Source: an uncultured Planctomycetaceae bacterium (GTDB lineage Bacteria > Planctomycetota > Phycisphaerae > SM23-33). From it: a DNA stretch of 55,658 nt. Numbering within the stretch: the stretch's first letter is position 1; each line of letters starts with the position of its first letter. The stretch is taken from contig CAYZPY010000003.1 of NCBI GenBank assembly GCA_964480425.1, forward strand, positions 1-55,658, given 5' to 3'. The notes under the pieces are model-generated. The model saw only the letters and a program-made list of their open reading frames with translations, made no database searches and was not told the DNA's origin. A program made the translations under genes and the position numbers. Of the stretch, positions 16,742 through 35,084 are shown piece by piece.

Positions 16742-16888
16742 GTGAATTCGGCCCTTCGTCGGGGTCACCGGAATTTTACAGGAAGGTTATACGGCAAATA
16801 TCAACAGAGGATGCAGCAGCAGGCAGGGAAGCGCATAAACAGTTGCACGCGAAAACCGGAAATTGAAGTTAAGGAGGCTTACCCATGA
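16742..16888 (+). CDS. Candidate 48-codon leader ORF, translationally coupled to the first pilin gene (hypothetical)
   Basis: AAAGGAGGTGATC at 16728..16740 is a perfect complement of the canonical 16S 3' tail. A GTG follows 1 nt after it (6 nt after GGAGG). The frame is open up to a TGA that overlaps the pilin ATG (ATGA at 16885..16888). The predicted peptide is very basic. Codon bias is not convincing. Confidence 0.25.
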   Translation: MNSALRRGHRNFTGRLYGKYQQRMQQQAGKRINSCTRKPEIEVKEAYP

Positions 16889-17334
16889 ACCGCAGGAACA
16901 AGGCATTCACCCTCGTAGAAATTCTAATCGTGGTGATCATTTTAGGCATCCTGGCGGCGATCGTGATTCCCCAGTTTACCGAGGCGTCCAGCGACGCGAG
17001 GGAATCGGCGCTGTCCAGCGATCTGCAAACCGTACGCAGTCAGCTCGAACTCTACAAGGTCCAGCATCTGGACAAGTACCCCGATGACGGCGGAGCTGAC
17101 GGGGCAACTTTCGTCAACCGGCTGACCAGCAAGACCAAGCAGGACGGCACCGTTGACGCCGGCGGCTCCTATGGCCCGTATCTGCAGACCTTTCCCACCA
17201 ATCCGTTCAACGATCTGGCGACGGTGGAAATAGAAGCAGGCGACGGAAACCTCGGCGGCGGCAGTCACGGATGGCACTTCAACAGCACCACAGGACGTTT
17301 CGCACCGGACGATGACGACCACACTGATATGTAG
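16885..17334 (+). CDS. Prepilin-type (class III signal) major pilin/pseudopilin, GspG-like
   Basis: MNRRNKA/FTLVEILIVVIILGILAAIVIPQF N-methylation motif, with Ala instead of Gly at -1. 149 aa. Strong RBS AAGGAGG. Confidence 0.85.
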   Translation: MNRRNKAFTLVEILIVVIILGILAAIVIPQFTEASSDARESALSSDLQTVRSQLELYKVQHLDKYPDDGGADGATFVNRLTSKTKQDGTVDAGGSYGPYLQTFPTNPFNDLATVEIEAGDGNLGGGSHGWHFNSTTGRFAPDDDDHTDM

Positions 17335-17384
17335 GCGGTCAACCTTTGTCCGACCGACAGGATAGAAACACTAATTCGGATCGC

Positions 17385-17413
17385 GCCGGAGCCGTCGAAA
17401 CGGCGGCTCCGGC
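17385..17413 (+). terminator. GC-rich hairpin downstream of the first pilin gene (possible attenuating terminator)
   Basis: GCCGGAGCCG at 17385..17394 pairs perfectly with CGGCTCCGGC at 17404..17413. No clear U-tract follows on the plus strand. Confidence 0.35.
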
Positions 17414-17530
17414 CGGTCCGCCTGAAAAACGAAATAGCTTTCATTGGAATAATCACGGAATCTATTTATCTCACAGGCGGATATAACCGATTTTGAAGCG
17501 TCAAAAACAGGTCAAAGGAAGGCCAGTCAA

Positions 17531-18031
17531 GTGAAAAGAGGCTTTACATTGGTGGAGATCCTGATCGTTGTGCTGCTGTTGGGCATAATAGCTGCCATAG
17601 CACTGCCTCGATTCTCAAATGCCACCGACATGGCCAGAGCGAGCATGCTCGCCGACGACCTTCGCATCATTCGCATGCAGATAGAAGTATTCAAGGGTCA
17701 GCACCGCGGCGTCGCGCCGGGTTATCCGAATTGCGACACTTCCCAGGCGCCCACCGAAGCGGCGTTTGTGACCCACATGATCAAGGCCTCCAAATCGAAC
17801 GGCGAAACCGCTGAACCTAATACGCCCGGGTTTCCACACGGACCGTATTTCCAGAAGATGCCAAGCAATCCGGTAAACAATAAATCCTCGGTAGAAATTA
17901 TCCCCGACGGAGGTGCATTGCCCGATGCTCCGGACGATTCACACGGGTGGATTTATCAGCCATCCACGATGACATTCAAGGCCGACTCGTCCGGACAGGA
18001 CGAAAACGGTAAGGAATTTTTCGACTATTAA
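17531..18031 (+). CDS. Prepilin-type major pilin/pseudopilin paralog, GspG-like
   Basis: GTG start. MKRG/FTLVEILIVVLLLGIIAAIALPRF. 166 aa. The C-terminal half is alignable with the preceding gene (PNxPxxGPY..xPxNP..N). Confidence 0.82.
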   Translation: MKRGFTLVEILIVVLLLGIIAAIALPRFSNATDMARASMLADDLRIIRMQIEVFKGQHRGVAPGYPNCDTSQAPTEAAFVTHMIKASKSNGETAEPNTPGFPHGPYFQKMPSNPVNNKSSVEIIPDGGALPDAPDDSHGWIYQPSTMTFKADSSGQDENGKEFFDY

Positions 18032-18061
18032 ACCGGGCGTTTTTGCCCCCAGGGTGGCAAC

Positions 18062-18610
18062 ATGAGTCGCAGAACCGCAGAATTCGCTCCGGTTGTGGGC
18101 AACCGGATGACGGACCGCAGGCGCGGGGGTCGGGGGGGATTTACGCTCTTAGAGGCCTTGCTGGCGTCCTCGCTACTTGCGATAGGCACCATAGCAATCA
18201 TTGTGCCCTTCGCTACCGGCGCGCGCAACGAACTGGTCGAATCCCGCCGGATACTCGCCCTGAACCTCGCCAAGGAAATGACCGAGGAGGTGCTCTCGCG
18301 CCCGTTCCTCGATCCCGACGGATATTCCGAACCGGGTCCGGAAATCTCCGAGACGTCGCGAGACCTGTTCGACAACGTTGACGATTACCACGGATACGTA
18401 GAACCGCCCGGAACCATAACGAACCTGGAGGGAGTCATAATCGACGGCCCCGCCGCACAGGACCTTTCGCGGCACGTGTCGGCCCAGTACATATATCTAA
18501 GCGGGCAGGACGTATCCGACGAACCGACGTTCATTCGCCTTATCGTGACAGTCAGGCACAAGAACAATGATATCGTTACCCTCACCAGGCTGGTTTACGC
18601 CAACGAGTAG
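18062..18610 (+). CDS. Minor pseudopilin (prepilin-type N-terminal domain; GspI/PilV-like)
   Basis: GRGG/FTLLEALLASSLLAIGTIAII. The start is either 18062 or the internal ATG at 18107. Confidence 0.7.
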   Translation: MSRRTAEFAPVVGNRMTDRRRGGRGGFTLLEALLASSLLAIGTIAIIVPFATGARNELVESRRILALNLAKEMTEEVLSRPFLDPDGYSEPGPEISETSRDLFDNVDDYHGYVEPPGTITNLEGVIIDGPAAQDLSRHVSAQYIYLSGQDVSDEPTFIRLIVTVRHKNNDIVTLTRLVYANE

Positions 18611-18632
18611 CGATGTATTAAGAGGAATATCC

Positions 18633-19286
18633 ATGAAACGCTCATCCAAGGCCTGGACGGTGATAGAAATGGTGCTGGCGATGTCCATAACAGCAGTAAT
18701 CGCCCTGACCATCGCCAGTGTAACGCTGGGGCTGTCCGCTTCGAATGCGACCACCAGGAATTCGCAACAGGCAAACCGCATTGCCACCTGCGCTGCGCGA
18801 CGCATACAGGCGGCGTTGCGAAAGGCGAAACTGATCACGTGCGCAGAAGACGATTATCTGGCCTACTGGGTCGAGGACACCAACGGCGACGGAAAAATCA
18901 ACCTCGCCGAAGTAGCAGCCATTAAGTACAACTCAGACAACGAAAAAATAAAGCACATACGCCCCACACTGGATCACATAACGGACGAGACCACAAAAAA
19001 GGCCCTGAACGTGAAAATTAATCTCGACTCCATAAAAAATTCGAGCTCCACGGAGCAGGTTCTGACAAATTCCCCCAAACTTAACGAGACGCTGCTGGCC
19101 GACAACGTGACAGATTTCAGTTTCAGCGCTACCCCCGATGTTCCCATGACCAAACTCGTGACGATGTATATGGAAATCCAGGTGGGTAATTACTCAATGA
19201 GATTGACCAGTTCCTCGGCGATCCGGGCCGACAAGATCGGGCAGGTCGGATATTCCGAGGAAAAATACATATTAATCGACGAATAA
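18633..19286 (+). CDS. Minor pseudopilin (prepilin-type; GspJ/PilW-like) with EF-hand-like Ca-binding loop
   Basis: MKRSSKA/WTVIEMVLAMSITAVIAL after RBS AAGAGGA. DTNGDGKINLAE at 18876..18911 fits DxNxDGxIxxxE. Confidence 0.7.
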   Translation: MKRSSKAWTVIEMVLAMSITAVIALTIASVTLGLSASNATTRNSQQANRIATCAARRIQAALRKAKLITCAEDDYLAYWVEDTNGDGKINLAEVAAIKYNSDNEKIKHIRPTLDHITDETTKKALNVKINLDSIKNSSSTEQVLTNSPKLNETLLADNVTDFSFSATPDVPMTKLVTMYMEIQVGNYSMRLTSSSAIRADKIGQVGYSEEKYILIDE

Positions 19287-19301
19287 AGGAGGGCCTTGCA
19301 T

Positions 19302-20531
19302 ATGAAGCATTACGCCCCTGCAAAAGGCAAATCGCACAACAGAGGGTTCGCCCTGTTGCTGGTGCTGATGGCGCTGGTTCTGGCGAGCACTATCGGCGTC
19401 AGTTACGTGGCCGGAAACTCCGTTTGCCTCAGCGGCACCTCGAACCTCCTCGACGCCGACCGCGCGAAATACCTCGCTGAGTCCGGCATACATCATGCCC
19501 TGTACATGATAAGGAAGAATCCGCAGACGGTTCCTTCCGACAGGAGCAGGGCGTTAAACGACAAGTACTACCCGGATTCCTCCGATGACGGGTATATCTT
19601 CTGGGCCCAATACATAGGCACCGAGTCCGATCCCGGTCTGTACATGTTAACCGCAGAGGGATTCTGCGGAGATATCAAACAGTACGTCTCGGTAACCGTC
19701 TCACGCGCCGCGGCTGCGGAGGTGGATATCGGGTACGGAATGGTGATAGCCAAGTCGATGGCGGTGTTGCCATGGAAACTGGATATGGAAGGAGATTTTC
19801 ACATAAACGGCTCCCTGTTAAACTTCGCCAGTATAAACGGCAATGCGTCCGCCGAGGCGGCAATCGATGATCCCGTGGGGCGAATTTCCGGAACCAAGGA
19901 GGAATGGGCGGAACATCAGCAGATTCCCCCAATCCAGTGGGAACAGTACGAAAATTACTCTCTTTACACGGAATCCTACCAGGCCGTCGAAGTTGACGGC
20001 GACGGGTTTGATTCCGGACATGCCCTTGCCGACGGCAGGGCGGTGACCGAGAATAATCCCGGCGGCGTCGTGCTGGTCAAACCTGACGATGGGGATGATG
20101 ACGACGATGATGGTGATGACGATGATGATGACGACGGGGATGGAAATCCGAGTGTCGAAATAAAGGATGGTTTCCACTTCACCGGGACTATCGTAGTAGA
20201 CGGCGACGTAGTACTGGTCGGCAAGGGTATCAAACTGGAGGCGGTTGACGGATTCCCCTCGATCGTGACCTCTGGGAAAATTTACGTCAAGGACGACGCG
20301 CACGCGAACATCGACGGATTCGTCATCGCCGGCGAGGGTATCGCCCCGATGGGCGACACGAGCGGTTCGCGAACGGATATCGAGGGAGGACTGCTTTGCG
20401 AGACCGTCGGATACAACTATTACCTCGATGGCGATCACTCGCTGCAATACGATCCGAACCGCAGTAAACTTTACGATTACACCGGTTCGGGGAACTTACC
20501 CGCGGCCCAAATAGTTACGTGGCACGATTAA
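19302..20531 (+). CDS. PilX-N/GspK-like minor pseudopilin lacking Glu5, with internal poly-Asp tract
   Basis: RBS AAGGAGGG lies 8 nt before the ATG at 19302. HNRG/FALLLVLMALVLASTIGVSYV. DDGDDDDDDGDDDDDDDGDG is encoded at 20085..20144. Confidence 0.65.
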   Translation: MKHYAPAKGKSHNRGFALLLVLMALVLASTIGVSYVAGNSVCLSGTSNLLDADRAKYLAESGIHHALYMIRKNPQTVPSDRSRALNDKYYPDSSDDGYIFWAQYIGTESDPGLYMLTAEGFCGDIKQYVSVTVSRAAAAEVDIGYGMVIAKSMAVLPWKLDMEGDFHINGSLLNFASINGNASAEAAIDDPVGRISGTKEEWAEHQQIPPIQWEQYENYSLYTESYQAVEVDGDGFDSGHALADGRAVTENNPGGVVLVKPDDGDDDDDDGDDDDDDDGDGNPSVEIKDGFHFTGTIVVDGDVVLVGKGIKLEAVDGFPSIVTSGKIYVKDDAHANIDGFVIAGEGIAPMGDTSGSRTDIEGGLLCETVGYNYYLDGDHSLQYDPNRSKLYDYTGSGNLPAAQIVTWHD

Positions 20532-20534
20532 ATC

Positions 20535-20867
20535 ATGGAGAGAAATATGCATAACAGGATTAGACACAACACCGGAAAAGTCTCGAAAGTATCGCACCTG
20601 GCGATGATTGCCGCGACGGTGCTGGCGGCTGCGGTGATCTTGGGACAACTGACCAACGTTCACATCCAGGCAAAGGATTCTTCAAAAAAGGAGTTCGTGC
20701 TCGATTCAAGCGGCCAGCGCAATGCCATAATAGAAGCGCAGAAGAAGACAAACGCCAAACTCGACGAGATTATCAGTCTTCTCAAGAGCGGTCAGGTGAA
20801 GGTCCAGGTGGTGGAAAAGAAATCAACCGCAGCAGGAGGGAGCGGAAATGATTCTGCGGGAACATAA
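20535..20867 (+). CDS. Small bitopic membrane protein of unknown function
   Basis: Single TM (LAMIAATVLAAAVILGQL), then a charged, probably helical segment and a Gly/Ser tail. An alternative ATG at 20547 is preceded by GGAGAG. The gene overlaps the next gene by 20 nt. Confidence 0.5.
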   Translation: MERNMHNRIRHNTGKVSKVSHLAMIAATVLAAAVILGQLTNVHIQAKDSSKKEFVLDSSGQRNAIIEAQKKTNAKLDEIISLLKSGQVKVQVVEKKSTAAGGSGNDSAGT

Positions 20868-21387
20868 CAACATTCCTTCCACCGGAAAACCGCTTTGCGC
20901 CGCCGCCGGCTTCACACTCGCCGAGATAATGGTCGTGCTGGTGATTCTGTCGATCGCCGCGCTGGTGATAGTGCCCGCCGCCATAGACGCCGCCTCTGTC
21001 CAGGCGATATCGGCCGCCAGAATGGTCGCCAGCGACATCGAATACGCGCAGAGTGCCGCCATCACGTACCAGAAACCCATCAGCGTCGTCTTCAAAAAGA
21101 GCGAAAATCTCTACCGAATTGTGGATGCTAATACAAGTCAGGTGCTCGTCCATCCGATTAATAAATCAGATTACGAGGTATTGCTTGGTCAAAAGGGCGG
21201 TTTTGAACAGGTCAGTATATCCTCTGCGGACTTCGGCGGTTCGGATTCGTCCGAATTGACATTTAACGAATTCGGCGAGCCGATTGACGGAAGCGGATGG
21301 GTGCAGATACAGGCGGGCGCCCATCTGTACAAGGTAAAAGTAGCGGCCGCCACCGGCATAGTGTCCGTTACGGATATCAGCCCGTGA
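20848..21387 (+). CDS. Minor pseudopilin, GspH/FimT-like
   Basis: AAAG/FTLAEIMVVLVILSIAALVIVPAA. RBS GGAGGGA. 179 aa. Confidence 0.72.
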   Translation: MILREHNNIPSTGKPLCAAAGFTLAEIMVVLVILSIAALVIVPAAIDAASVQAISAARMVASDIEYAQSAAITYQKPISVVFKKSENLYRIVDANTSQVLVHPINKSDYEVLLGQKGGFEQVSISSADFGGSDSSELTFNEFGEPIDGSGWVQIQAGAHLYKVKVAAATGIVSVTDISP

Positions 21388-21406
21388 AAGGAGCCCGGAC
21401 GGATAG

Positions 21407-22630
21407 ATGTTTGATTCGTTGCTGATAAAAGGGTGTCAACCGATAGGACTTGACATAGGGACCGACAGCATCAAGATGTTCCAGCTGCAGAGAGTCGGTT
21501 CTATTGTCAGGGTCCGCGCATGCGCCAAAATCAAACTGCCCCAAACCTCGCCCGACCAGCAGCAGGATTCGCCCGACCAGCTTGCGCCCGTCATCGCAGA
21601 TGCCCTTAAGGAAGGCGGATTTCGAGGAAGGAGGGTCATTTCTTCGCTCAGTTGCAGGCAATTGAAGGTCAAAAACATCCGCCTGCCCGTCATGCCGCCC
21701 GAAGAGCTCAACGAGGCAATCAGGTGGGAGGCCAAGGAGCGTCTGGGTTTCGACATGGAGCCGGACCAGCTCAATTACATCCGCGCCGGGCAGATCCGCC
21801 TGGACGATGAGACGCACGAAGAGGTGATAATTCTCGCCGTGACCCCCGAGACCATAGAGGAGCACGTTTCACTGCTGGATTCTGCGGGTCTGCATCCTGT
21901 GAACATAGACGCGGCGCCTGTGGCGGTGTTCCGCGGCTTCGAAAGGTTCCTGCGACGCAAGGCCGACGAACAGACCGTCAGCGTCATTCTCGACATCGGA
22001 CACGAAGGAACGCGCGTAATAGTCGCCCGCGGACGACGAATCGTTTTCATCAAAAACATAGACATAGGCGGGCGAAAAATAAACGATGCCGTGGCCGGAC
22101 GATTGAACATCACGCCGTCCGAAGCCATGGAAGTGCGATTAAGATTCTCCCGGAAAGTCACTGCCGACGACAGGGAGTTCAAACCCTCGGACCACTGTGG
22201 CACCGGGATTCCCGACGATTCCAAATTCTCGGGCGCGCCGGATATGGAGGGCGCCGACTGGAGCATATACGAAGCGATTCGCGGGCAGGTCGAGACCCTG
22301 GCGCAGGAGATAAGTCTGCACCTGCGCTATTGCGCGGTAACCTTCCGCGGGCTGCGAGCGAAGAAGATAATTGTCACCGGGGGGCAGGCGTACGACTCGA
22401 TTCTTCTCAAGATGCTGGCCGATAATATCGGTCTTCCCTGCCGGATCGGCAATCCGCTGCGGGGCATAGACGTCTCCGGGGTGGACCTCGGCGCCGACAG
22501 GCGGGGAATGCTCGCCGAATGGTCGGTCTGTGCGGGTCTTGCGATGCGCGGAATGGACTTCCAGGCGGGCTCGAGGTCGCACCAAACAGACAAGGACAAC
22601 GCCGATGAACACCATAGACTTTCTGCCTGA
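21407..22630 (+). CDS. pilM: PilM-like actin-fold pilus/secretion assembly protein
   Basis: IGLDIGTDSIKMFQLQ N-terminus and ILDIGHEGTRVIV second phosphate motif. 407 aa. Followed by PilN/PilO-like genes. Confidence 0.8.
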   Translation: MFDSLLIKGCQPIGLDIGTDSIKMFQLQRVGSIVRVRACAKIKLPQTSPDQQQDSPDQLAPVIADALKEGGFRGRRVISSLSCRQLKVKNIRLPVMPPEELNEAIRWEAKERLGFDMEPDQLNYIRAGQIRLDDETHEEVIILAVTPETIEEHVSLLDSAGLHPVNIDAAPVAVFRGFERFLRRKADEQTVSVILDIGHEGTRVIVARGRRIVFIKNIDIGGRKINDAVAGRLNITPSEAMEVRLRFSRKVTADDREFKPSDHCGTGIPDDSKFSGAPDMEGADWSIYEAIRGQVETLAQEISLHLRYCAVTFRGLRAKKIIVTGGQAYDSILLKMLADNIGLPCRIGNPLRGIDVSGVDLGADRRGMLAEWSVCAGLAMRGMDFQAGSRSHQTDKDNADEHHRLSA

Positions 22631-23231
22631 AAGAATACGCGCCCGGCGCGAGAAGCGCCGCCGGCTTATCAGCCAGTCGTGTCTGCTGGTGGTGTGTTTC
22701 ATCGCACTGGGTATTCTGGGGTGGTTCCGGCAGGCCAAGATCGAAAAGGCCCGGGCGGAACTGGCGTTGTTGCAGAGTCGCGCCCAAAATGTCCAGCGAC
22801 AGATAGAAACCAAGAAACTGCTCCAGGAACAGATGGGCGAGCTGATGATTAAAAAGAGGATAGAAGAACACCTCGGAAGCAGGGCCCGCATTCTGGATAT
22901 CATGGTCGAACTTCAGAACCTGGTGCCGCCAAGCATGGCGCTTACTAAACTCCAGGTCGAAACAAAGGAAATCACGGTTCCCGTCGAACCGGGACCGAAT
23001 GTCGGCGCCAGGGCAAGAACCGCAACAGGCGCGCCTAAAAACAGAAAAATCAAGCGCGTCCAACTGGTCCTGACAGGACTTGCGCCCACGGACGTCGAGG
23101 TGGCGAACTTTATAGGGCAGATGTCCGCCAGCCCGCTGCTGGAAGACGTCAATATGGGCTACGCAAGGACCGTGGAGTTTCGCGGAAGGACTGCAAGAGA
23201 GTTTCGCGCCAACTGTTACGTGGTGCGATAG
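22605..23231 (+). CDS. pilN: PilN-like bitopic assembly protein
   Basis: MNTIDFLPERIRARREKRRR, then a TM helix and a coiled coil. The ATG at 22605 overlaps the pilM end by 26 nt. Confidence 0.75.
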   Translation: MNTIDFLPERIRARREKRRRLISQSCLLVVCFIALGILGWFRQAKIEKARAELALLQSRAQNVQRQIETKKLLQEQMGELMIKKRIEEHLGSRARILDIMVELQNLVPPSMALTKLQVETKEITVPVEPGPNVGARARTATGAPKNRKIKRVQLVLTGLAPTDVEVANFIGQMSASPLLEDVNMGYARTVEFRGRTAREFRANCYVVR

Positions 23232-23243
23232 GAATCACCAGTT

Positions 23244-23774
23244 ATGGCCAAAATTGCAAAAGACAGTCTTATAGCCCTTGGGATACTTCTGGCGGCAGTA
23301 GCCACGGCTACGTTTACGATATACCTTCCCCAGAGAAGCAATCTAAAGGAGCTCGAGGCCGGCATCACCACGCAAAAGGCCGCCCTGGCGAACGATGCCC
23401 GACAGTCCACAACGCTTCCGGAACTGGTCCAGAAAGTGCAGTCTCTCAAGAAGAGATACAGCGGGTTCGACCGCCGCCTTCCCAAGCGCAAGGAACTCGG
23501 CGGATTCCTGAGGGAAATCACCGGGTGCCTCTCGCTGGAGAAACTTTCCAATGAACTGATCGAACCGGGCAATCCGGCTCAGGAAGAACTGTTCCACACG
23601 CTTCCGATTATCATGAAATTCGAGGGCTCATACCTGTCTCTCGCCGGATTCCTCGAACGCATTGACAAAATGCAGCGCCTTACAAGGGTGCAGTCGCTGA
23701 ACATCGAATCGGACTCCAAGGAAAAGACGCTCGAAATCGAGTTGCGCCTGAATATCTACTTCACGGAGAGCTGA
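23244..23774 (+). CDS. pilO: PilO/GspM-like bitopic assembly protein
   Basis: 176 aa with an N-terminal TM, a coiled coil and a ferredoxin-like C-terminus (TLPIIMKFEGSYLSLAGFLERI). Position is directly after pilN. Confidence 0.7.
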   Translation: MAKIAKDSLIALGILLAAVATATFTIYLPQRSNLKELEAGITTQKAALANDARQSTTLPELVQKVQSLKKRYSGFDRRLPKRKELGGFLREITGCLSLEKLSNELIEPGNPAQEELFHTLPIIMKFEGSYLSLAGFLERIDKMQRLTRVQSLNIESDSKEKTLEIELRLNIYFTES

Positions 23775-23815: not shown

Positions 23816-24421
23816 ATGACTGAACAACAAAACAAAACGAAAATAACAAGCCGCCTGATAAACGACCTTAAGAGCGATAAGAAAAAGACGGCGGTTCTGT
23901 GCATCCTCGCCATAGTCGCGCTGGTATTGGTTTTAAAAACCACGCTGAAGAAAGGTTCGCCCACGCAGGTCCGCACACTTGCGGCTGCACAAAATACTCA
24001 GGGCGAAAATTCCGACAATACCCGGATTTCCTCCAGTTCCAGGGAAATCGCCCGCGCACTGTCGCAAAACAAGGACCACCATAAAAATCGCCCCAAAATC
24101 GAGCGCGACATATTCAACCCGAACCCGGAATATTTCCCGCCCCGCGTGAGGCGTGACACCAGTACCGACGTGCAGCAAAAGGAGAATCCCAACCAGCAGC
24201 AGCAGCGACTCGATGCCCACAGGCAGACCATATTAGCCCAGGCAAGGGCGCTGTCGCTGCAAAGCACCGTGGTCTCAAAGGAGCCCACGGCAATCATCAA
24301 CGGAAAAGTTCTATGCAAGGGCGACTGGATAAGCGGATTCAAGGTGGTTGAGATTACAGCACGCAACTGCGAACTCACAAAAGAAGGCGTTACTATAATC
24401 CTTACCATGAAAAACCGATAA
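23816..24421 (+). CDS. Bitopic protein with GspB/PilP-like C-terminal beta domain
   Basis: TM (AVLCILAIVALVLVL), a low-complexity linker, then TAIINGKVLCKGDWISGFKVVEITARNCELTKEGVTIILTM, which resembles the (A)xINGxxxxxGDxIxGxxVxxI signature. Confidence 0.55.
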   Translation: MTEQQNKTKITSRLINDLKSDKKKTAVLCILAIVALVLVLKTTLKKGSPTQVRTLAAAQNTQGENSDNTRISSSSREIARALSQNKDHHKNRPKIERDIFNPNPEYFPPRVRRDTSTDVQQKENPNQQQQRLDAHRQTILAQARALSLQSTVVSKEPTAIINGKVLCKGDWISGFKVVEITARNCELTKEGVTIILTMKNR

Positions 24422-26601: not shown

Positions 26602-26682
26602 AATTTTTTGAGCACGGGTGTTAATCCGGGAGTTTTAGGAAACCCAGCGAACTTGGCGACGATCGTCGCCGGGAGCAAAATC

Positions 26683-27973: not shown

Positions 27974-29416
27974 ATGACGATCATCAAACACGGCCCGCTG
28001 GTGGGAAAGGTGCTGCTTTCACTGGTTGCCGGCTTGGCCAGTTATGCCGTGATGAGAACCTTCCATGAAAGATGGGGTCTTGATGCATCGGTGAATCACG
28101 TGATTTTGGGACTCGTTCTGGCCGTGGCGGTCCTGACGCTGTTCGTATTCAGACAGAACTTTTATAAAACGATTGCGCAAATATGCTCACAACTGCGGGA
28201 GATGTCCCGCAGCGGGCGCGTGCACCTGATGGGTCCTTATTCTGTCGGACAGTCCGCCCAGATTACCCGCTCGCTCAACGAGTTCCTCGATTCGGTAAAA
28301 ACCCAAATAGAACGACTGGAGAGCGAGAATCGCGAACTGCAGTTGCAATGCAGGGTAATATCCGGCGAAAAAAGAAACACCGAGGCGATTATCTTTTCCA
28401 TCTCCGACGCGGTGATCGTGACCAATCGTTTCGACGAGCTGCTGCTGGCCAACGAGGCCGCCGAAAACCTGCTGGGCTTTACATTCTCCCGCGACTATCG
28501 CCTGAATATCGCCGAGGTTATCTCGGACAAAGAACTCGTAGATCTCATTTGCGAGGTTCGCAGCCACGGCGAGCACGTAACCCGCAGGCAGGTCGAGCAC
28601 ACCATAACCGTCAACGGCGCCAGTCGGACTTTCAACACCACTTTTGGATGCGTGGTCACGCCCGACGACGAAATATCCGGCGTGGTGGCGGTCCTGCACG
28701 ACATCACCCACGACAAAGAAATCGCCGACATGAAAACAAATTTCGTCTCGCATGTCTCTCACGAGCTGAAAACGCCTCTGGCGTCCATAAAGGCCTACAT
28801 CGAAATGCTGCTGGACGGCGAGGCGCAGGACAAGCAGACCCAGCGGGATTTTTACGAGATAATATCCGCGGAGACAAATCGTCTTCACCGCCTGATAGAA
28901 AACATACTGAACATATCGCGGATAGAGTCCGGCGTGATAAAGGTCGCCAGAAAGCCCATGAGTATCACCGGCGTGGTCAAGCAGGTGCTCGACGTGGTGT
29001 GCGTTCAGGCCAAGGCGAAGAATATAAAAATCGAACAGTCCCTGGCGCCGGTTTTCTACCAGGTTCAGGCCGACCAGGACCTCGTCTACCAGGCGGTCAT
29101 GAACCTTGTATCCAACGCCATCAAGTACACGCCCCGTGGCGGAAAGGTGACGGTAACCGTCGCGGTGGACGAGCGCAGGAGGGTGGTGCGCTGCGAGGTG
29201 GGCGACTCGGGCGTGGGCATACCGCCCCAGGAGCTTCCGCACGTGTTCGACAAGTTCTACCGCGTGGGCTCCAACGAAAAAGTCGCAAAGGGCACGGGGC
29301 TCGGGCTGACACTGGTGAAGCGGATTATCGAGACGGTCCACAACGGCAAACTCGACGTCGCCAGTGAAGAAGGAAAGGAAAGCACTTTCGCCTTCGAGCT
29401 GGCGCTTACAAAGTAA
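27974..29416 (+). CDS. Membrane-anchored PAS sensor histidine kinase
   Basis: Two N-terminal TM helices with a very short loop, a coiled coil, a PAS-like region, an H-box (FVSHVSHELKTPLASIKAY) and N/G boxes (NLVSNAIKYTP, DSGVGI, GTGLGL). Confidence 0.88.
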   Translation: MTIIKHGPLVGKVLLSLVAGLASYAVMRTFHERWGLDASVNHVILGLVLAVAVLTLFVFRQNFYKTIAQICSQLREMSRSGRVHLMGPYSVGQSAQITRSLNEFLDSVKTQIERLESENRELQLQCRVISGEKRNTEAIIFSISDAVIVTNRFDELLLANEAAENLLGFTFSRDYRLNIAEVISDKELVDLICEVRSHGEHVTRRQVEHTITVNGASRTFNTTFGCVVTPDDEISGVVAVLHDITHDKEIADMKTNFVSHVSHELKTPLASIKAYIEMLLDGEAQDKQTQRDFYEIISAETNRLHRLIENILNISRIESGVIKVARKPMSITGVVKQVLDVVCVQAKAKNIKIEQSLAPVFYQVQADQDLVYQAVMNLVSNAIKYTPRGGKVTVTVAVDERRRVVRCEVGDSGVGIPPQELPHVFDKFYRVGSNEKVAKGTGLGLTLVKRIIETVHNGKLDVASEEGKESTFAFELALTK

Positions 29417-29514
29417 AGACACCGACTTATTGTAACGATACAAATAAGGAACGGCCTGCTCATGCCGGACCGGAAACTGAAAGGCAGGAAAAGAAGTTCA
29501 AAGGGAGACTGAAT

Positions 29515-29919
29515 ATGCCTCAGGGTCGAAAAAAAGTATTGGTTGCCGACGACGAATCCCACATTCTTAACGTGCTGTCGCTGAAGCTCAAAAACGCCGG
29601 TTACGAGGTGCTGACCGCCATGGACGGCGAAGAGGCGCTGGAACTGGCAAGAGAGCAGCGCCCGGACCTGATAATAACCGATTATCAGATGCCGGTAATT
29701 ACTGGCCTGGAGCTTTGCCAGCGCCTGCGGAGCGAAAGACACGCCCGGCGGATACCGGCACTGATGCTCACCGCGCGCGGATTCGACCTGGAGCCCGCCG
29801 AACTGTCCGCAGTCGGCATAGCGGGTGTGTTGGCCAAACCCTTTTCACTGCGGCAGGTGCTCACCAAGGTCGAAGAACTCATATCCGACGCCGATGAAAA
29901 AGTTACGGAGGATGTATGA
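29515..29919 (+). CDS. Single-domain response regulator (CheY-like receiver)
   Basis: KVLVADDE, phospho-acceptor context DLIITDYQMP, and AKPF. 134 aa. The stop overlaps the next start (ATGA). Confidence 0.88.
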   Translation: MPQGRKKVLVADDESHILNVLSLKLKNAGYEVLTAMDGEEALELAREQRPDLIITDYQMPVITGLELCQRLRSERHARRIPALMLTARGFDLEPAELSAVGIAGVLAKPFSLRQVLTKVEELISDADEKVTEDV

Positions 29920-31589
29920 GCCGCATTGAAACATCCTCTCAGCAGAGAATACTTCCGCTTCCCGAAACGGTGACTGAGGAGCTTCGCGCCCGTATGGAGC
30001 GGTTGGGCCTGCATCTTTCCACCTGGGACGAAACTGGTCGGTGCGTCGAGGGATTCTGCCCGTCCTGCAGGTTCTGCCGCTTCATACTCGGCGCCGAAGG
30101 TCCGTGCCGCCAAAGCGCTCAAAAGGCCTCGCAAAAGGCGATGACCCGGGGCGACAACGCACTGGAACAATGCTGGACCGGCTGTTTCCAGATGAGCATC
30201 CCCATCCGTCGGCGAAGGCGTCTGACTGGCGCGGTGGTGGCGTGCTTCCCGCCCACTGAAATCCTCGAAGAAGAGCACTTCTGGCGCATGTGCGACCGCC
30301 TCCGCCTGGACCGCCAGGCCACCAGGGGTCTGGCCGAGCGGCACTGCCGATACAACGCCTCTCAGGCCCAATATCTCATGAATGTTGTCGGATGGATGGT
30401 GGAGCTTCTGTTGAACGAGAAGACCGCGCAAGACGAACTTGCCACGCTTAGCAATAATCTCGCCAGGACTTACGAGGAACTCTCCCTGGTCTACCGGATA
30501 AGCGACTCGATTAAAATTACGCAGCAGCCGGGAGATTTCCTCCAGAACGCATGCAACGAATTGCTGGAGGTTATGAACATATCCAGCGCCTGGGCCGTGT
30601 TCAGCCCCCATCGAAAACACCACCAGGATAAACTCGTCGTCAGGGCCGGACACGAAAACGTCCCACCGGACAAAGTTATGCGCCTGGCGGAGGAAATCAA
30701 CAGGAGAATGGACTCCATGCGTCGTGTATTGCTGGACAACTGCTTCGAGCTTCCGCTGACCGGTGGCGCCGAGGAGAATCCGCGCGGGCTGGTGGCAGTG
30801 CCTATTGTCGCGGAAGACCACCAGGTCGGGCTACTCATAGGCGCCGATAAATTAACCGGCGAATTCAACAGCGCGGACCTGCAATTACTCAGTTCGATCG
30901 CCAACCAAACAGGAGTTTTTCTTGCCAACAGCATGCTGTACGCCGACCTCCAGGACCTCCTGATAGGGGTGCTTCACGCCCTGACGGCTTCTATCGACGC
31001 AAAAGAACCGTACACCAGCGGTCACTCCCAGCGAGTGGCGCTTATATCCAAGCACCTTGCCGAGGAATCGGGCCTGGATGCCGAGAGCGTCAAGCAGGTG
31101 TACCTGGCCGGTCTGTTGCACGACATCGGAAAGATAGGCGTGCCCGAGGAGACGCTTCGCAAGGCGAATCAGCTGAACAAGGCTGAATTTGACAAGATCA
31201 AACAGCATCCTGTTATCGGGGCGAGAATCATCGGCGGCTTTCGACAGTGGGAAGGCGTTACCAGAGGAATACTGGCGCACCACGAGAGGCCTGACGGTAA
31301 AGGTTATCCCCAGGGACTCAAAGGCGAAGAAATACCTATCGAAGGAAGAATAGTGGGACTGGCCGACTGCCTCGATGCGATGATAACCGACAGGACATAC
31401 AGAAAAGCCCTCCCGCTCGACAAGGCCGTTGAGGAGTTGCGAGGATACGCCGGAACGCAGTTCGACGCCGACCTTGTTCACAAGCTGCTTTCGATAGACC
31501 TCAAAGAATTCATAAGCTACATCAGTCGCGGGAGTTCGTTCAAACTCGGCGCAGAACCGACGTGCGCGTCGAGGCCCACGACCGCTTGA
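29916..31589 (+). CDS. PocR-like / GAF / HD-GYP domain protein (putative c-di-GMP phosphodiesterase)
   Basis: HSQRVA...LLHDIGKIGVPE...HHERPDGKGYPQGL defines HD-GYP. A GAF-like region precedes it. The Cys-rich N-terminus (FCPSCRFCRFI..GPC....CWTGCFQMSIPI) resembles a PocR sensory domain. Confidence 0.85.
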   Translation: MSRIETSSQQRILPLPETVTEELRARMERLGLHLSTWDETGRCVEGFCPSCRFCRFILGAEGPCRQSAQKASQKAMTRGDNALEQCWTGCFQMSIPIRRRRRLTGAVVACFPPTEILEEEHFWRMCDRLRLDRQATRGLAERHCRYNASQAQYLMNVVGWMVELLLNEKTAQDELATLSNNLARTYEELSLVYRISDSIKITQQPGDFLQNACNELLEVMNISSAWAVFSPHRKHHQDKLVVRAGHENVPPDKVMRLAEEINRRMDSMRRVLLDNCFELPLTGGAEENPRGLVAVPIVAEDHQVGLLIGADKLTGEFNSADLQLLSSIANQTGVFLANSMLYADLQDLLIGVLHALTASIDAKEPYTSGHSQRVALISKHLAEESGLDAESVKQVYLAGLLHDIGKIGVPEETLRKANQLNKAEFDKIKQHPVIGARIIGGFRQWEGVTRGILAHHERPDGKGYPQGLKGEEIPIEGRIVGLADCLDAMITDRTYRKALPLDKAVEELRGYAGTQFDADLVHKLLSIDLKEFISYISRGSSFKLGAEPTCASRPTTA

Positions 31590-31606
31590 ACGCCGGAGGA
31601 CAAAAC

Positions 31607-31963
31607 ATGAACATTAACGCCGAGACATACGGTCATGTGGCCATCCTCTCAATCAAGGGAGAAATAACCGAGGACTCGCTGGAGCAACTTATCAGGGCCG
31701 TGGAAAACCAGCTCAAAGAAGACCAGGTAATCGACATTGTGCTGGACCTTCAGAAAACTCCCACTGTTGACAGCGCCTCTCTGGAGTACTTCCTGGACCT
31801 TCAGGACACACTGGCCGAACGAATGGGAAGGGTAAGGTTATGCGGATGCGACGAAAACATACTCAAGATACTCCAGATTACACGCCTGGACTCCGCCTTT
31901 GAAACTTACGAAAACGCCGAGGAAGCAATAAAGGAACGAATGGACATAGGCGCCCGCAGCTGA
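31607..31963 (+). CDS. STAS domain protein (anti-sigma-factor antagonist family)
   Basis: MNINAETYGHVAILSIKGEI...VDSASLEYFL...LKILQITRL. About 118 aa from the ATG at 31607. Confidence 0.8.
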   Translation: MNINAETYGHVAILSIKGEITEDSLEQLIRAVENQLKEDQVIDIVLDLQKTPTVDSASLEYFLDLQDTLAERMGRVRLCGCDENILKILQITRLDSAFETYENAEEAIKERMDIGARS

Positions 31964-32023
31964 TGGCGCGGCGCCAAGGGTGCCAGCGTATTCCAAAGGG
32001 CACAGACGAACGGACTTGACGGC

Positions 32024-33832
32024 ATGATTTCCAGACCTGAAAACGATTCGAACCGAGCGACGCACGAGGCAGGCGGACCGCAAAGCCGCGGTCCCGTTGC
32101 TTCGGGACCGCCCGAATCCCGGGGGGGGCCCAGGTCCAAATCCGCCATGCCTCTGGGGCAGTTACTTATACGGCAGGGGACTTTGACCCAGGAGCAACTG
32201 GCCCAGGCGCTGGAATACCAGCGTAAATCGGGCACAACCCTGCTGCTGGGCGAGGTGCTTCAGAAACTCGATATATGCACCGAAGACCAGATCATGCAGG
32301 CGCTGGCTGCGGGATACGGCGTGCCGTTCGCCAAGATATCTCCCAGGATCGCCGACCCGAAGGTGATCGACACGCTGCCGAGGGATTTCCTGGAAAAGAA
32401 CACCGTGCTTCCCCTGTTTAACGTAAGGAACCGCCTTTCGCTTGCGGTGAACGAACCTGCCAACGTGTTCCTCATGGAAGAGGTGGCGCGTCTGACCGGT
32501 TGTGAAGTCATGGTGGTGTGCGCAACCGCCAACGACATAAAGGCCACGCTCGAAACGCACCTTCCCTCGGCCAACGTTTTCGTCATAGACGAGATATTCG
32601 AGGACGAGATGCCCGACGAATTGTCCATTGTCGAGGATAAAATAGAAGACATCACGGACCTCGAGGCGGTTTCGGAGGGCTCGCCGGTCGTCAAGCTGGT
32701 GAATTACCTTCTGTTCAACGCCGTCAGGGAAGGCGCCTCGGACATACACATCGAACCGGACGAAAACTCGCTTCGCGTTCGGTACAGGGTGGACGGAATC
32801 CTGTTCGAGAAACTCAAACCGCCACACAAGATGCTGCCCGCCATCGTAAGCAGGATCAAAATCATGGCACAACTGGACATATCCGAAAGGCGCATCCCGC
32901 AGGACGGCGGGATACACGTGCTGATGAACAGCAGGCCCATCGACCTGCGGGTCAGCACCATGCCAAGCCAGCACGGGGAAAAGGTGGTTATCAGAATAAT
33001 CGATAACCGCAGGGTCCTGGTGAACCTGGAAAAACTCGGATTCGCTTACGAGACGCTCAAGGCCTGGAGAAAAATTATCTCCATACCCAACGGGATCGTG
33101 CTGGTGACCGGACCCACCGGAAGCGGCAAGAGCACCACCCTCTACAGCGTGCTTAACGAATTGTGCAGCGAGCAGGTAAACATATGCACGGTGGAGGACC
33201 CCGTCGAATACAATCTAAGCGGGGTAAATCAGTTCCAGGTGAACGAGCGGATCGGATTCACGTTCGCCTCGGCGCTTCGTTCGCTGCTGCGACAGGACCC
33301 TGACATCATAATGGTCGGCGAAATACGCGACGAAGAGACGGCGAGAACCGCGGTGCAGGCCGCTCTTACGGGGCACCTTGTCTTCAGCACGCTGCACACC
33401 AACGACGCGCCCGGCGCGGTTATGCGCCTGGTCAACATAGGCGTCGAGCCGTACCTCGTGGCCGCTTCCGTCGAGGCCGTGCTCGCCCAGAGACTTGTCA
33501 GAAAAATCTGCACGAACTGCAAGGAACAATACGAACCCTCCGCCGGAATCCGACGCGCCGTCGAGCGGGAAGTGGGGCACGTGGAGAAATTTTACAAAGG
33601 CGCCGGATGCAAAAAATGCCGAAGCACCGGTTACGGGGGGCGAATCGGAATCTACGAACTGCTCGTGCCGAACGATGAAATAACGGAAAAAATAAACGTC
33701 GGAGCGAACCAGGAAGAAATACGCGCCGCGGCGGTCAAAAACGGAATGGTCACCCTCCGACGCGACGGAATGTCAAAAGTCGCCGCCGGAATAACCACCA
33801 TGGAGGAAGTCTTCAGGGCCACCGCGGGTTAG
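32024..33832 (+). CDS. gspE: Type II secretion / type IV pilus assembly ATPase (GspE/PilB/MshE family) with T2SSE_N (MshEN-like) N-domain
   Basis: Walker A GPTGSGKSTT, Asp/His boxes, and the tetracysteine CTNC...CKKC. The N-domain LGQLLIRQGTLTQEQLAQALEYQ starts just after the alternative start at 32147. The 41 aa upstream of that are low complexity. Confidence 0.9.
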   Translation: MISRPENDSNRATHEAGGPQSRGPVASGPPESRGGPRSKSAMPLGQLLIRQGTLTQEQLAQALEYQRKSGTTLLLGEVLQKLDICTEDQIMQALAAGYGVPFAKISPRIADPKVIDTLPRDFLEKNTVLPLFNVRNRLSLAVNEPANVFLMEEVARLTGCEVMVVCATANDIKATLETHLPSANVFVIDEIFEDEMPDELSIVEDKIEDITDLEAVSEGSPVVKLVNYLLFNAVREGASDIHIEPDENSLRVRYRVDGILFEKLKPPHKMLPAIVSRIKIMAQLDISERRIPQDGGIHVLMNSRPIDLRVSTMPSQHGEKVVIRIIDNRRVLVNLEKLGFAYETLKAWRKIISIPNGIVLVTGPTGSGKSTTLYSVLNELCSEQVNICTVEDPVEYNLSGVNQFQVNERIGFTFASALRSLLRQDPDIIMVGEIRDEETARTAVQAALTGHLVFSTLHTNDAPGAVMRLVNIGVEPYLVAASVEAVLAQRLVRKICTNCKEQYEPSAGIRRAVEREVGHVEKFYKGAGCKKCRSTGYGGRIGIYELLVPNDEITEKINVGANQEEIRAAAVKNGMVTLRRDGMSKVAAGITTMEEVFRATAG

Positions 33833-33866
33833 TCCCCCGCTCCCTGATGAACGCACAAACACGAAA

Positions 33867-35084
33867 ATGCCTAAATTCGCTTATCACGCTCGTGTTGGAA
33901 CAGGACAGTCCGACGCCGGCGTTCTGGTGGCAAAAGACATGGACGAGGCCGTCGGACTGCTGCGACGAGAGGGCAAGTCCGTCGTTTCAATCAGACCGCA
34001 TGACGAAGAAATCTTCGGCGACAACGCCGCACGCCGGCAAAAAGGCAAAATCAAGCGTGACCATGTCATATTCTTCGCCACGCAACTGGCGGTGATGGTC
34101 GATACGGGTGTGCCGCTTGACGAGGCGCTTGACGCAATAGCCCAGCAAACGGACAAACCGGAACTTTCCCGGGTGGTTAACAACCTCTCTGAACAGGTCA
34201 AATCCGGGCAAACGCTGTCTTCGGCGATGGAGAGCCACCCGAAAGTTTTCAACAGACTTTTAGTGGCGCTTGTGCGCGCATCCGAAGCCTCGGGCACCAT
34301 GGGGAAAATGCTCCAGCGGGCCAGCCAGTATATGCAGTCCGAAAGAAAAACCCGCAAGCAGATAAAAGGCGCAATGACCTACCCGATATGCATGCTCAGT
34401 TTCTGCGCGATAGTTATCATTGCGCTGCTGACACTGATCCTGCCGCGGTTCGAGAAGATTTACAGCACAAAAGGTGCGGTGCTACCGGCCCCGACTCGAA
34501 TACTGCTGGGCGCCAACCATGTCATGGCGAATTACTGGTTTGTTCTAATCCCGGCTGTGGGGGCCTTGGCTGCGGGCCTTTACGCCTATTTCAAATCACC
34601 GGGCGGAAAAATCCTGATGGATAAAGTCAAAATAAACATGCCGGTAATAGGGCCCATGTACCAAAAGGCCTCACTGGCCAGGTCCATGAGGACGCTTTCC
34701 ACCATGGTCGCAACCGACGTCGGCATTCTGGAAGGGCTGCAAATTACCGCCGAGGTCTCCGGAAATCACTATTATTCGAGGATGTGGAGGGACGTAGCCG
34801 ATAACGTCAAGGAGGGCTCGACCCTTTCGGAGCGGCTTTTCGAGTGTGAACTGGTCCCCAGAACGCTGACTCAAATGATAAACGCCGGAGAACGCACCGG
34901 ACAGCTCTCAATCGTACTGGAAAGGGCGGCCAACTTCTGCGACGAGGAACTATCGGTGGCCGTCAAGGCCATGACAAGTCTCATAGAACCCGCCATGATT
35001 ATAATAATGGGGCTTATTGTCGGCGGCATCGCCATAGCGCTGCTTCTGCCGGTGTTCAGTCTGTCAAAGGTCGTGTCGCACTGA
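33867..35084 (+). CDS. gspF: Type II secretion / type IV pilus inner-membrane platform protein (GspF/PilC/MshG family)
   Basis: 405 aa with the duplicated T2SSF architecture (two cytoplasmic domains, three TM segments) and the C-terminal GGIAIALLLPVF. Confidence 0.9.
   Translation: MPKFAYHARVGTGQSDAGVLVAKDMDEAVGLLRREGKSVVSIRPHDEEIFGDNAARRQKGKIKRDHVIFFATQLAVMVDTGVPLDEALDAIAQQTDKPELSRVVNNLSEQVKSGQTLSSAMESHPKVFNRLLVALVRASEASGTMGKMLQRASQYMQSERKTRKQIKGAMTYPICMLSFCAIVIIALLTLILPRFEKIYSTKGAVLPAPTRILLGANHVMANYWFVLIPAVGALAAGLYAYFKSPGGKILMDKVKINMPVIGPMYQKASLARSMRTLSTMVATDVGILEGLQITAEVSGNHYYSRMWRDVADNVKEGSTLSERLFECELVPRTLTQMINAGERTGQLSIVLERAANFCDEELSVAVKAMTSLIEPAMIIIMGLIVGGIAIALLLPVFSLSKVVSH

Follow-up and report, generated by a model that had tools for sequence, protein, structure and literature searches.

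We analyzed contig CAYZPY010000003.1 of an uncultured Phycisphaerae bacterium, a 55,658-bp stretch of DNA that is one entire contig and is called the window here. Nineteen consecutive genes of this window (g1 to g19, 16885-35084) probably encode one complete Phycisphaerae pilus system of type IVa pilus (T4aP) grade, which would be controlled by a phosphorelay, by cyclic di-GMP (c-di-GMP) and by a STAS protein and is inherited as a single block. This reading is built on the gene content of the locus, its synteny in related genomes, the intact residues of its signaling proteins, the ComZ-like fold of the pilin g5 and a PilT gene that sits between pilB and pilC in one third of the orthologous loci. 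A listing of open reading frames (ORFs) showed that the 19 ORFs are co-directional, all on the + strand, with short gaps or overlaps between neighbors, as had been reported in a first-pass annotation made from the sequence alone. Pfam and NCBIfam scans gave family assignments for the locus genes and reproduced those of the annotation.

The annotation also called the locus a hybrid. This label is fair for the similarity scores, which form a mosaic: the pilins point toward GspG, a protein of type II secretion systems (T2SS), the platform protein points toward PilC, and the assembly ATPase and the secretin are tied. However, the mosaic does not require recombination. In published phylogenies, T2SS and the mannose-sensitive hemagglutinin pili (MSH, MSHA) derive from within a paraphyletic T4aP group, and many "generic" systems are left unassigned (PMC6668835); because T2SS and MSH are offshoots of this group, the locus need not be a recombinant. 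Architecture is more telling than scores for the type of system.

Signaling Genes Are an Ancestral Part of the Locus

A secretin alignment over one genome per GTDB species recovered a relative in 292 species-representative genomes. This bears out the proposal of a distinct type IV filament (Tff) lineage in the Planctomycetes-Verrucomicrobia-Chlamydiae group, here in the Phycisphaerae. We kept 80 of the 292 loci, all from Phycisphaerae/Planctomycetota metagenome-assembled genomes (MAGs), Tepidisphaeraceae included. Relatives of the secretin g12 were 47-80% identical and came from Phycisphaerae/Planctomycetota MAGs. The ATPase g18 had more than 8000 relatives in the database; the top 120 were 72-90% identical, and the named ones among them were again from such MAGs. 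When the 19 proteins were searched by tblastn, 34 of the 35 loci holding both g1 and g19 were colinear with the window.

Four signaling genes lie between the gene for a tetratricopeptide repeat (TPR) lipoprotein and the ATPase gene:

g14, 27974..29416, + strand: membrane PAS-HisKA-HATPase histidine kinase (HK), from a domain scan
g15, 29515..29919, + strand: stand-alone receiver (REC) with no output domain (Response_reg 88.7)
g16, 29916..31589, + strand: predicted PocR-GAF-HD-GYP phosphodiesterase (HD_5 132.4, PocR 43.9, GAF)
g17, 31562..31963, likely start 31607, + strand: STAS protein, anti-sigma-antagonist-like (STAS 59.1; TIGR00377 59.4, cutoff 53.45)

The first-pass annotation viewed these genes as a cassette that interrupts the filament locus. 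Of the 45 loci with a TPR gene as well as an orthologous ATPase, 43 have all four genes between these two, arranged as in the window. This synteny makes them an ancestral part of the locus and not an interruption. The two exceptions are the more distant loci L070 and L071, which keep the TPR-STAS-ATPase order and are missing the kinase, receiver and HD-GYP genes. Because STAS is the only one of the four that these loci keep, it would be a core partner of the motor and is the signaling gene most tightly tied to the ATPase. A recent insertion of the cassette was considered and ruled out by the synteny; GC content is even along the whole locus (0.54-0.58).

The active-site residues of the module are invariant as well. 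The H-box histidine H263 of the kinase was found in 55/55 orthologues, and the G-boxes are invariant too. The receiver keeps D12, D13, D56 and K108 in 56/56 orthologues, together with an invariant T86. The HD and HHExxDGxGYP motifs of g16 are present, with H370, H402-D403 and H455-H456-E..D-G.G-Y-P invariant in 47-48 of 48 sequences, and D70-S71 of the STAS protein is invariant (47/47).

At window positions 29916-29919 (ATGA), the stop codon of g15 overlaps the start codon of g16 by 4 nt, which suggests translational coupling of a putative split RpfG-like REC and HD-GYP pair. In the Xanthomonas RpfC/RpfG system, the receiver of RpfG controls an HD-GYP c-di-GMP phosphodiesterase and is paired with the kinase RpfC. 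The Phycisphaerae genes share this pairing of kinase, receiver and HD-GYP. However, REC and HD-GYP form one protein in RpfG, whereas g15 and g16 are separate, g16 carries its own PocR and GAF domains, and the pair is embedded in a pilus locus. By analogy, g15 and g16 would be coupled as in RpfG. The PocR domain at the N-terminus of g16 (window 29916-30420) holds a cysteine cluster (C48, C51, C54 and C64) that may be a metal or redox site; 37-38 of the 48 orthologues retain C54 and C64.

Control of pilus motors by c-di-GMP has precedents in MshE, PilB and PilF (PMC5013675, PMC11656802, PMC8851539). Nothing relevant on this locus, or on a link between STAS and PilB motors, came up in literature searches, and as far as these searches show, the pairing of STAS, a split REC/HD-GYP and an MshEN ATPase is undescribed.

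PilT Lies within a Third of the Orthologous Loci

The first-pass annotation stated that no PilT-like retraction ATPase is encoded in the window. This is true of the window, where tblastn for an ATPase paralogue of the PilT type found none, but not of its relatives. A PilT-family ORF of ~355-385 aa lies between the ATPase and platform genes in 11 of 32 orthologous loci, which gives the order pilB-pilT-pilC, and four further, truncated loci show the same arrangement by tblastn. Four of the PilT ORFs were scanned and all of them passed TIGR01420 (402-447, cutoff 319.1). The PilT-family genes at the ATPase-platform junction are:

L004, 18767-19867
L071, 15473-16603
L052, 13128-14219
L077, 18775-19929
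seven further loci with such a gene

The loci with PilT are patchy on the ATPase tree: L071 and L077 lie in the basal branch and others are scattered through the crown. This distribution fits an ancestral pilT that was repeatedly lost or relocated. The lineage of the window, which includes L001 and L002, has no pilT at this site. The statement that the window encodes no prepilin peptidase stood: tblastn with Acinetobacter PilD and Aeromonas TapD as queries found none in the window, nor in the 10 kb that flank each of the 80 related loci. With one contig in hand, the absence of PilT and PilD applies to the window only.

These results bear on an alternative in which the locus is a divergent T2SS. 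A short periplasmic pseudopilus of GspG-like subunits with an H-I-J-K cap would then push folded exoproteins (e.g., polysaccharide-degrading enzymes) through the secretin, with PilM/N/O replacing GspL/M and g11 replacing GspC/GspB. The window without PilT and the arrangement in a single locus with adjacent pilins, as in T2SS (PMC6668835), would agree with such a system. However, a PilT-family ATPase within the locus is not a T2SS feature. The in-locus PilT of the orthologues therefore makes the T2SS reading unlikely and the T4aP reading, with a retractile pilus, likely.

The Alignment Complex and the Secretin

The genes between the pilins and the signaling module encode the inner-membrane complex and the outer-membrane channel:

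g8, 21407..22630, + strand: PilM, actin-like cytoplasmic component (TIGR01175, PilM_2)
g9, 22605..23231, + strand: PilN (Pfam PilN); the ORF opens at 22530 and the likely start reads MNTIDFLPE...
g10, 23244..23774, + strand: PilO (Pfam PilO)
g11, 23816..24421, + strand: bitopic protein with a GspB/CdsD_C-type C-terminal beta-domain, from a family scan
g12, 24520..26601, + strand: secretin with an N0/STN domain, one N domain, the secretin domain and a C-terminal extension
g13, 26608..27912, likely start 26680, + strand: TPR lipoprotein (TPR families; ...AITSG/C, the slash marking the cleavage site)

PilM, PilN and PilO are separate proteins, as in T4aP. PilM scored 133.4 with TIGR01175 (cutoff 133) and 107.2 with PilM_2, PilN 33.5 with its Pfam model (cutoff 22.8) and PilO 75.3 (cutoff 22). 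At least 53 of 67 orthologues retain the N-terminal [IVL]DFLP of PilN; in T4aP, a PilN N-terminus of this type docks into PilM. GspL and GspM were not found among the window proteins (the GspM model reached 22.8 and 15.9, cutoff 60), nor did any window protein match T2SSC or PDZ, and one of 41 g11 family members matched T2SSC at E 0.079. We thus agree with the annotation that a PilM/N/O complex stands where a GspL/M/C complex might have been. The missing GspC, GspL and GspM speak against a T2SS, GspC being mandatory in the TXSScan T2SS model.

The description of g11 as GspB/PilP-like held for a C-terminal domain of ~40 aa, which matched CdsD_C in 37/41 and T2SSB (GspB) in 29/41 family members, and for nothing beyond it; searched against PDB, the family profile gave nothing significant. 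From these sequence matches, we infer that g11 would be the equivalent of PilP or GspC that links to the secretin.

The secretin g12 (Pfam Secretin 134.9) scored almost equally with two curated models and covered them differently. The PilQ model TIGR02515 gave 213.2 (cutoff 284.35) and was aligned over positions 5-428 of its 428, whereas the GspD model TIGR02517 gave 213.8 (cutoff 351.35) and was aligned at positions 305-594 only, its C-terminal half. A single Secretin_N domain was detected, in contrast to the N0-N3 array of GspD. The missing N1-N3 array and the half alignment are further points against a T2SS. We also scored profiles built from the Phycisphaerae orthologues on a reference panel of annotated T2SS- and T4aP-type proteins (E. 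coli Gsp/Etp/Hof/Ppd, Acinetobacter PilBCD, Ralstonia/Cupriavidus/Comamonas Gsp and Aeromonas TapC/TapD). By this measure the secretin family was neutral (GspD 128-156 versus HofQ 147). Past the secretin domain, g12 extends by ~190 aa (residues 505-693, window 26032-26598) without a Pfam match; this lineage-specific extension is longer than the GspD S-domain and holds the family-invariant residues W532, W560 and W588. The TPR lipoprotein g13 scored 84.9 with PilW TIGR02521 (cutoff 154) and 36 with Tgl, and has a lipobox-like ITSG/C; it is a candidate pilotin or analogue of MshN/PilF/Tgl.

The Vibrio cholerae MSHA locus has the order mshI-J-K-L-N-E-G. As the annotation had pointed out, the order of the assembly genes here (PilM-like, N/O-like, small protein, secretin, TPR protein, ATPase, platform) runs parallel to it. 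The locus might then encode a c-di-GMP-activated adhesive pilus like Vibrio MshA. Like MshE, the ATPase has an MshEN domain, and it passed the MshE-related c-di-GMP motif model NF053729 (48.8, cutoff 38). The locus also has no prepilin peptidase, as in all MSH loci (PMC6668835), and it encodes a phosphodiesterase; phosphodiesterase control of MSHA, including the triggering of retraction, is known (PMC8851539), and control of extension and retraction in this way is only proposed for the Phycisphaerae locus. However, the secretin scored only 127.9 with MshL TIGR02519 (cutoff 250.2), below PilQ and GspD, and the pilins and other components did not reach MSH models either. No MshM-type (ExeA-like) ATPase is present among the 19 genes. 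The pilins lie upstream and are an H/I/J/K-type set with a ComZ-like tip in place of MshA/B/C/D, and in the PDB search the match of MshA to g1 was confined to the N-terminal helix (46.4 bits). MshEN also occurs on PilB, PilF and some GspE proteins, its motif II is degenerate in g18, and relatives carry PilT within the locus. An MSHA-type pilus is thus very unlikely.

The Extension ATPase and the Platform Protein

The motor genes close the locus:

g18, 32024..33832, + strand: extension ATPase with an N-terminal MshEN domain (T2SSE 461.9, MshEN 57.5)
g19, 33867..35084, + strand: platform protein of the PilC/GspF family (T2SSF 203.2)

The ATPase scored 627.4 with PilB TIGR02538 (cutoff 675.65) and 621.4 with GspE (cutoff 630.25). 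At full length, its best PDB matches were Geobacter PilB (535 bits) and Myxococcus PilB (498). The family profile was neutral: GspE proteins scored 494-531, Acinetobacter PilB 510, and the top reference, with 617 bits, was GspE from a T2SS variant of Comamonas. This variant is encoded on Comamonas odontotermitis plasmid NZ_CP083452.1 (L083) as gspE-F-G-H-I-J-K, an L-like gene annotated "PilN domain", then M-?-D. This GspE has an N-terminus of the MshEN type; its alignment with the Phycisphaerae ATPase begins at query residue 44, i.e., it runs through the MshEN region. NZ_AP026896.1 (L081) is listed in PLSDB as a "plasmid" of Aeromonas caviae; at 4.94 Mb it is a chromosome. Its match was rejected as a bona fide MshE reference, being a tapB split by a 380-aa ORF that is probably an insertion sequence.

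In a neighbor-joining tree of the ATPase core (342 columns, 10 outside references of which 4 were annotated GspE and 6 PilB/PilF-like or unassigned, PilT outgroups, no MSH reference), the Phycisphaerae sequences formed a separate clade with 100% bootstrap support. Among the sampled references, this clade lay outside the canonical GspE clade (100%), which is another point against a T2SS. The deeper nodes of the tree had 17-46% support, and in view of these values a sister relationship to T2SS was not accepted.

In a rather unlikely reading, the locus would be a separate, deep-branching Tff family, neither T4aP nor T2SS nor MSH in the TXSScan sense, near the divergence of T2SS and MSH from T4aP. 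A dedicated, co-inherited switch would then gate the motor through three inputs to a MshEN domain that has diverged, namely phosphorelay, HD-GYP and STAS, and the ComZ-like tip would capture polymers, the solenoid feeding a planctomycete-style uptake of macromolecules. Planctomycete systems are not mentioned in the main text of Denise et al. 2019.

For the platform protein, curated models and profiles gave different rankings. GspF was the best NCBIfam model (332.3, cutoff 424), ahead of the PilC models (276-299, cutoff 700), whereas the family profile leaned to PilC (PilC 326 and TapC 314 versus GspF 245-268).

The Pilins

The 5' part of the locus encodes the filament subunits, listed here with the prepilin cleavage site marked by a slash:

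g1, 16885..17334, + strand: major pilin candidate A, 149 aa, KA/FTLVE, no cysteine
g2, 17531..18031, + strand: major pilin candidate B, 166 aa, RG/FTLVE, one cysteine
g3, 18062..18610, likely start 18107, + strand: minor pilin of the I/PilV type, GG/FTLLE
g4, 18567..19286, likely start 18633, + strand: minor pilin of the J/PilW type, KA/WTVIE
g5, 19296..20531, + strand: K-type tip pilin, beta-solenoid, ComZ-like, RG/FALLL, without E5
g6, 20535..20867, + strand: small bitopic membrane protein of 110 aa, no family match
g7, 20848..21387, + strand: minor pilin of the GspH/FimU type, AG/FTLAE

A six-frame motif scan found the class III signal with E5 in five proteins and nowhere else in the window; with g5, which lacks E5, this matches the count of six prepilin-type proteins given before. 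The small protein g6 was extracted as a tblastn-matched ORF in 36 of 80 related loci.

The candidate major pilins g1 and g2 are paralogues (39% identity) and are paired in most related loci. g1 matched N_methyl with 33.2 bits. The annotation called both GspG-like, and GspG TIGR01710 is still the best named model; however, g1 (54.6) and g2 (39.6) are both under its curated cutoff of 88.85, and T2SSG matched 8 of 50 major pilin family members. Against PDB, the globular domain of the major pilins had no significant match, and the N-terminal helix of g1 matched Geobacter PilA-N best (66.9). An AlphaFold model of g1 made without an alignment was unusable (pLDDT 50) and gave no fold-level call between GspG and T4a pilin. 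At position -1 of the cleavage site, Ala in place of Gly is found in g1 of the window, in 14/57 g1, ~27/57 g2 and ~16/52 g7 orthologues, which implies a putative Ala-tolerant peptidase in the lineage.

Among the minor pilins, g3 scored under the cutoffs of both PilV TIGR02523 (21.2) and GspI (17.7), and its family profile was best with the GspI-position pilin of the Comamonas T2SS (26.4). For g4, curated models gave only weak matches; its profile ranked the Comamonas J-position pilin (28.1) above PpdC (24.9) and GspJ (20.3). For both families, the match was limited to the N-terminal methylation motif. g7 passed the Pfam GspH cutoff (21.1 versus 21), and 21/21 family members scanned matched GspH.

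The tip pilin g5 gave weak PilX_N and GspK matches at its N-terminus, the GspK model covering the N-terminal 62 residues with 22 bits (versus 130). An AF2 model (10-sequence alignment, pLDDT 82, pTM 0.69) showed a long N-terminal helix and a pilin beta-sheet followed by a beta-solenoid. Foldseek matched this model to ComZ (6qvi, probability 1.00, E 3.6e-6) and then to ice-binding beta-solenoids; GspK was absent from the matches, and the alpha-helical insertion domain of GspK was not found. The sequence profile of g5 independently picked ComZ (E 2.9e-4). A ComZ-type beta-solenoid in place of the GspK alpha-domain is a further argument against a T2SS. A poly-Asp/Gly tract of g5, DDGDDDDDDGDDDDDDDGDG (residues ~264-285, window ~20085-20150), lies in a low-confidence loop of the modeled solenoid and could serve in cation binding or as a variable spacer.

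ComZ shows the same combination as the g5 model: its pilin domain resembles GspK, and inserted into it is a beta-solenoid that is most similar to FfIBP. The protein has been argued to sit at the pilus tip; the minor pilins of the Thermus T4aP are nearer to T2SS pseudopilins than to T4a pilins (PMC6561018). T2SS-style pseudopilins in a T4aP machine therefore have a precedent. The claim that a G-H-I-J-K set is the hallmark of type II secretion falls with it, T4aP having homologous minor pilins and g5 being ComZ-like.

The match to ComZ by profile and fold also raises the idea of a Thermus-like competence pilus for DNA uptake, in which g5 would be the receptor for DNA. Thermus ComZ is a DNA-binding protein of the pilus tip (PMC6561018) and binds through lysines, and two major pilins recall the two Thermus pili built by one machine (PMC13039148). 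However, comEA, comEC and dprA are absent from the window, Foldseek TM-scores to ComZ are low (0.2-0.27), and the solenoid is equally ice-binding- or adhesin-like. g5 is the least conserved of the pilins (mean column identity 27%), a better fit to a variable adhesin than to a DNA receptor. We consider a competence pilus highly improbable.

Surroundings of the Locus

The locus is flanked by housekeeping genes, with hemC upstream and tRNA-Thr, tuf, tRNA-Trp, nusG, rpoB/C and ribosomal proteins downstream. When the entire window was scanned with Rfam for riboswitches preceding the pilin genes, such as a c-di-GMP type, two tRNAs were the only hits. The 330 nt upstream of g1, aligned for 17 loci, held no conserved leader besides the ribosome-binding site, and promoter and terminator consensus scans gave counts not above the shuffled expectation. 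From motif positions and ortholog alignment, the likely start codons were revised to ~18107 (g3), 18633 (g4), 22605 (g9), 26680 (g13) and 31607 (g17). Farther upstream, two + strand ORFs of ~300 aa each (8154-9101 and 9126-10010) match no Pfam family. The second of them overlaps a minus-strand pyrB-like gene at that gene's 3' end, so that one or both may be spurious.

Discussion

How do these results weigh for the type of system? Several of them count against a T4aP. The major pilins are closer to GspG in score and do not have the T4a disulfide: the g1 family profile scored 57-66 with GspG and 38 with E. coli PpdD, and 47/57 g1 orthologues are cysteine-free, without the C-terminal disulfide region of T4a pilins. 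g11 is anchored by a transmembrane (TM) segment and has no PilP family match, so that a PilP lipoprotein is missing; AMIN was not found on the secretin, nor PilY1 in the locus. The core of the ATPase, taken alone, is tied between Geobacter PilB (441), Vibrio GspE (421-423), Myxococcus PilB (419) and Thermus PilF (378), and the weakly supported deeper nodes of its tree include a link to GspE (17% bootstrap). Only PilM, PilN, PilO and GspH reach a curated family cutoff, and the window itself lacks PilT and PilD.

The regulatory part of the reading has its own difficulties. Compared with the published MshEN c-di-GMP motif (PMC5013675), motif I of g18 (residues 43-66, PLGQLLIRQGTLTQEQLAQALEYQ) is near-canonical, whereas motif II (LLGEVLQKLDICTEDQIMQALAAG) follows a spacer of 7 residues (5 in the published motif) and departs from the relaxed pattern at ~5 of 11 positions. 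Motif II is near-invariant within the Phycisphaerae family. Small motif deviations abolish c-di-GMP binding in GSPII-A of PilF (PMC12002112); because of this precedent and the deviating motif II, c-di-GMP binding by g18 is plausible only, and this uncertainty has to be counted too. Neither a diguanylate cyclase nor a PilZ protein is encoded in the locus, and for the receiver, the STAS protein, g6 and g11, we can only infer what they do.

Some of these points favor a T2SS, and they have to be read with the others. Like the Gsp systems of E. coli, Ralstonia, Cupriavidus and the Comamonas plasmid variant, the locus combines GspG-leaning, mostly cysteine-free major pilins with adjacent GspH-type and I/J/K-position minor pilins in a single locus. 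T2SSG matches some major pilins, g7 passes the GspH cutoff, g11 has the GspB-type domain, GspF is the best NCBIfam model for the platform, and the ATPase is just under the GspE cutoff with the Comamonas GspE as its top reference. The Pfam GspH family also takes in FimU-type T4aP pilins. Against this stand the absence of GspC/L/M, the PilQ-type architecture of the secretin, PilT in orthologous loci, a ComZ-type and not a GspK-type tip and a platform profile that favors PilC.

The T4aP systems of Myxococcus and Geobacter are laid out as pilB-pilT-pilC-pilS-pilR-pilA ... pilMNOPQ, with Tgl. They provide the best full-length ATPase matches and the PilA-N match of g1, and they share with the Phycisphaerae the pilB-pilT-pilC order (in the 11 orthologous loci), two-component genes in the pil cluster and a TPR lipoprotein. 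PilS-PilR is a kinase with an NtrC-type transcription factor, whereas the Phycisphaerae receiver lacks an output domain and would be coupled to HD-GYP and STAS. The Phycisphaerae locus also differs in that it lacks a PilP lipoprotein, its secretin is without AMIN domains and its major pilins lean to GspG. M. xanthus PilB binds c-di-GMP via MshEN (PMC11656802).

The Thermus thermophilus pilus (PilF, PilMNO-W-Q, pilA1-A2-comZ-A3-A4, PilA4/PilA5) likewise has PilM/N/O with a secretin and an extension ATPase whose MshEN/GSPII-type N-terminal domain(s) are linked to c-di-GMP. It also shares minor pilins that resemble T2SS pseudopilins, a solenoid K-type tip pilin and more than one major pilin. The differences are three MshEN domains versus one in g18, and a g18 core that scores lower with PilF (378 bits) than with Geobacter PilB or Vibrio GspE. 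Thermus PilW is replaced in the Phycisphaerae locus by the TPR lipoprotein and the GspB-type bitopic protein, and all genes form one locus with the HK-REC-HD-GYP-STAS module embedded. Features specific to the Phycisphaerae lineage are the two GspG-leaning, near cysteine-free major pilins, the ComZ-type tip pilin, the TM-anchored GspB-type connector, the extra C-terminal region of the secretin, the optional in-locus PilT and the embedded HK/REC/HD-GYP/STAS switch.

Taking the T4aP reading as a working model, a filament whose body is made of g1, g2 or both would be primed by four minor pilins: g7 of the H type, g3 of the I type, g4 of the J type and g5 of the K/ComZ type, with its solenoid at the tip. 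The platform g19 (PilC) and a hexameric g18 would power assembly, and PilM-PilN-PilO would keep the two in register, the [IVL]DFLP of PilN presumably binding PilM. g11 would bridge the inner-membrane complex to N0 of the PilQ-type secretin, and g13 would aid the insertion or stability of the secretin. The embedded module would gate extension: the PAS kinase g14 may phosphorylate the receiver g15, which, translationally coupled to g16 like a split RpfG, probably controls g16 and thus the local c-di-GMP level. The MshEN domain of g18 may sense c-di-GMP, and the STAS protein g17 may act on the motor directly or by partner switching. Retraction would be driven by PilT where the locus encodes one; in the organism of the window, PilT may be encoded elsewhere or retraction may be motor-independent. 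The output is likely to be a dynamic pilus on the cell surface with which particles or polymers are bound or captured.

In sediments, soils and digesters, Phycisphaerae are abundant and degrade polymers, and to our knowledge almost nothing is known of their surface machinery. The locus is among the few large gene blocks conserved across this class. Its mixed characters, with GspG-like subunits, a PilMNO and PilQ-type core, an optional PilT and a ComZ-type tip, make it a data point on the origin of T2SS and MSH from T4aP. With structural genes and regulators within 18 kb, it is also a compact model for the switching of a filament by a second messenger and a phosphorelay, and this control mechanism is its novel, testable part.

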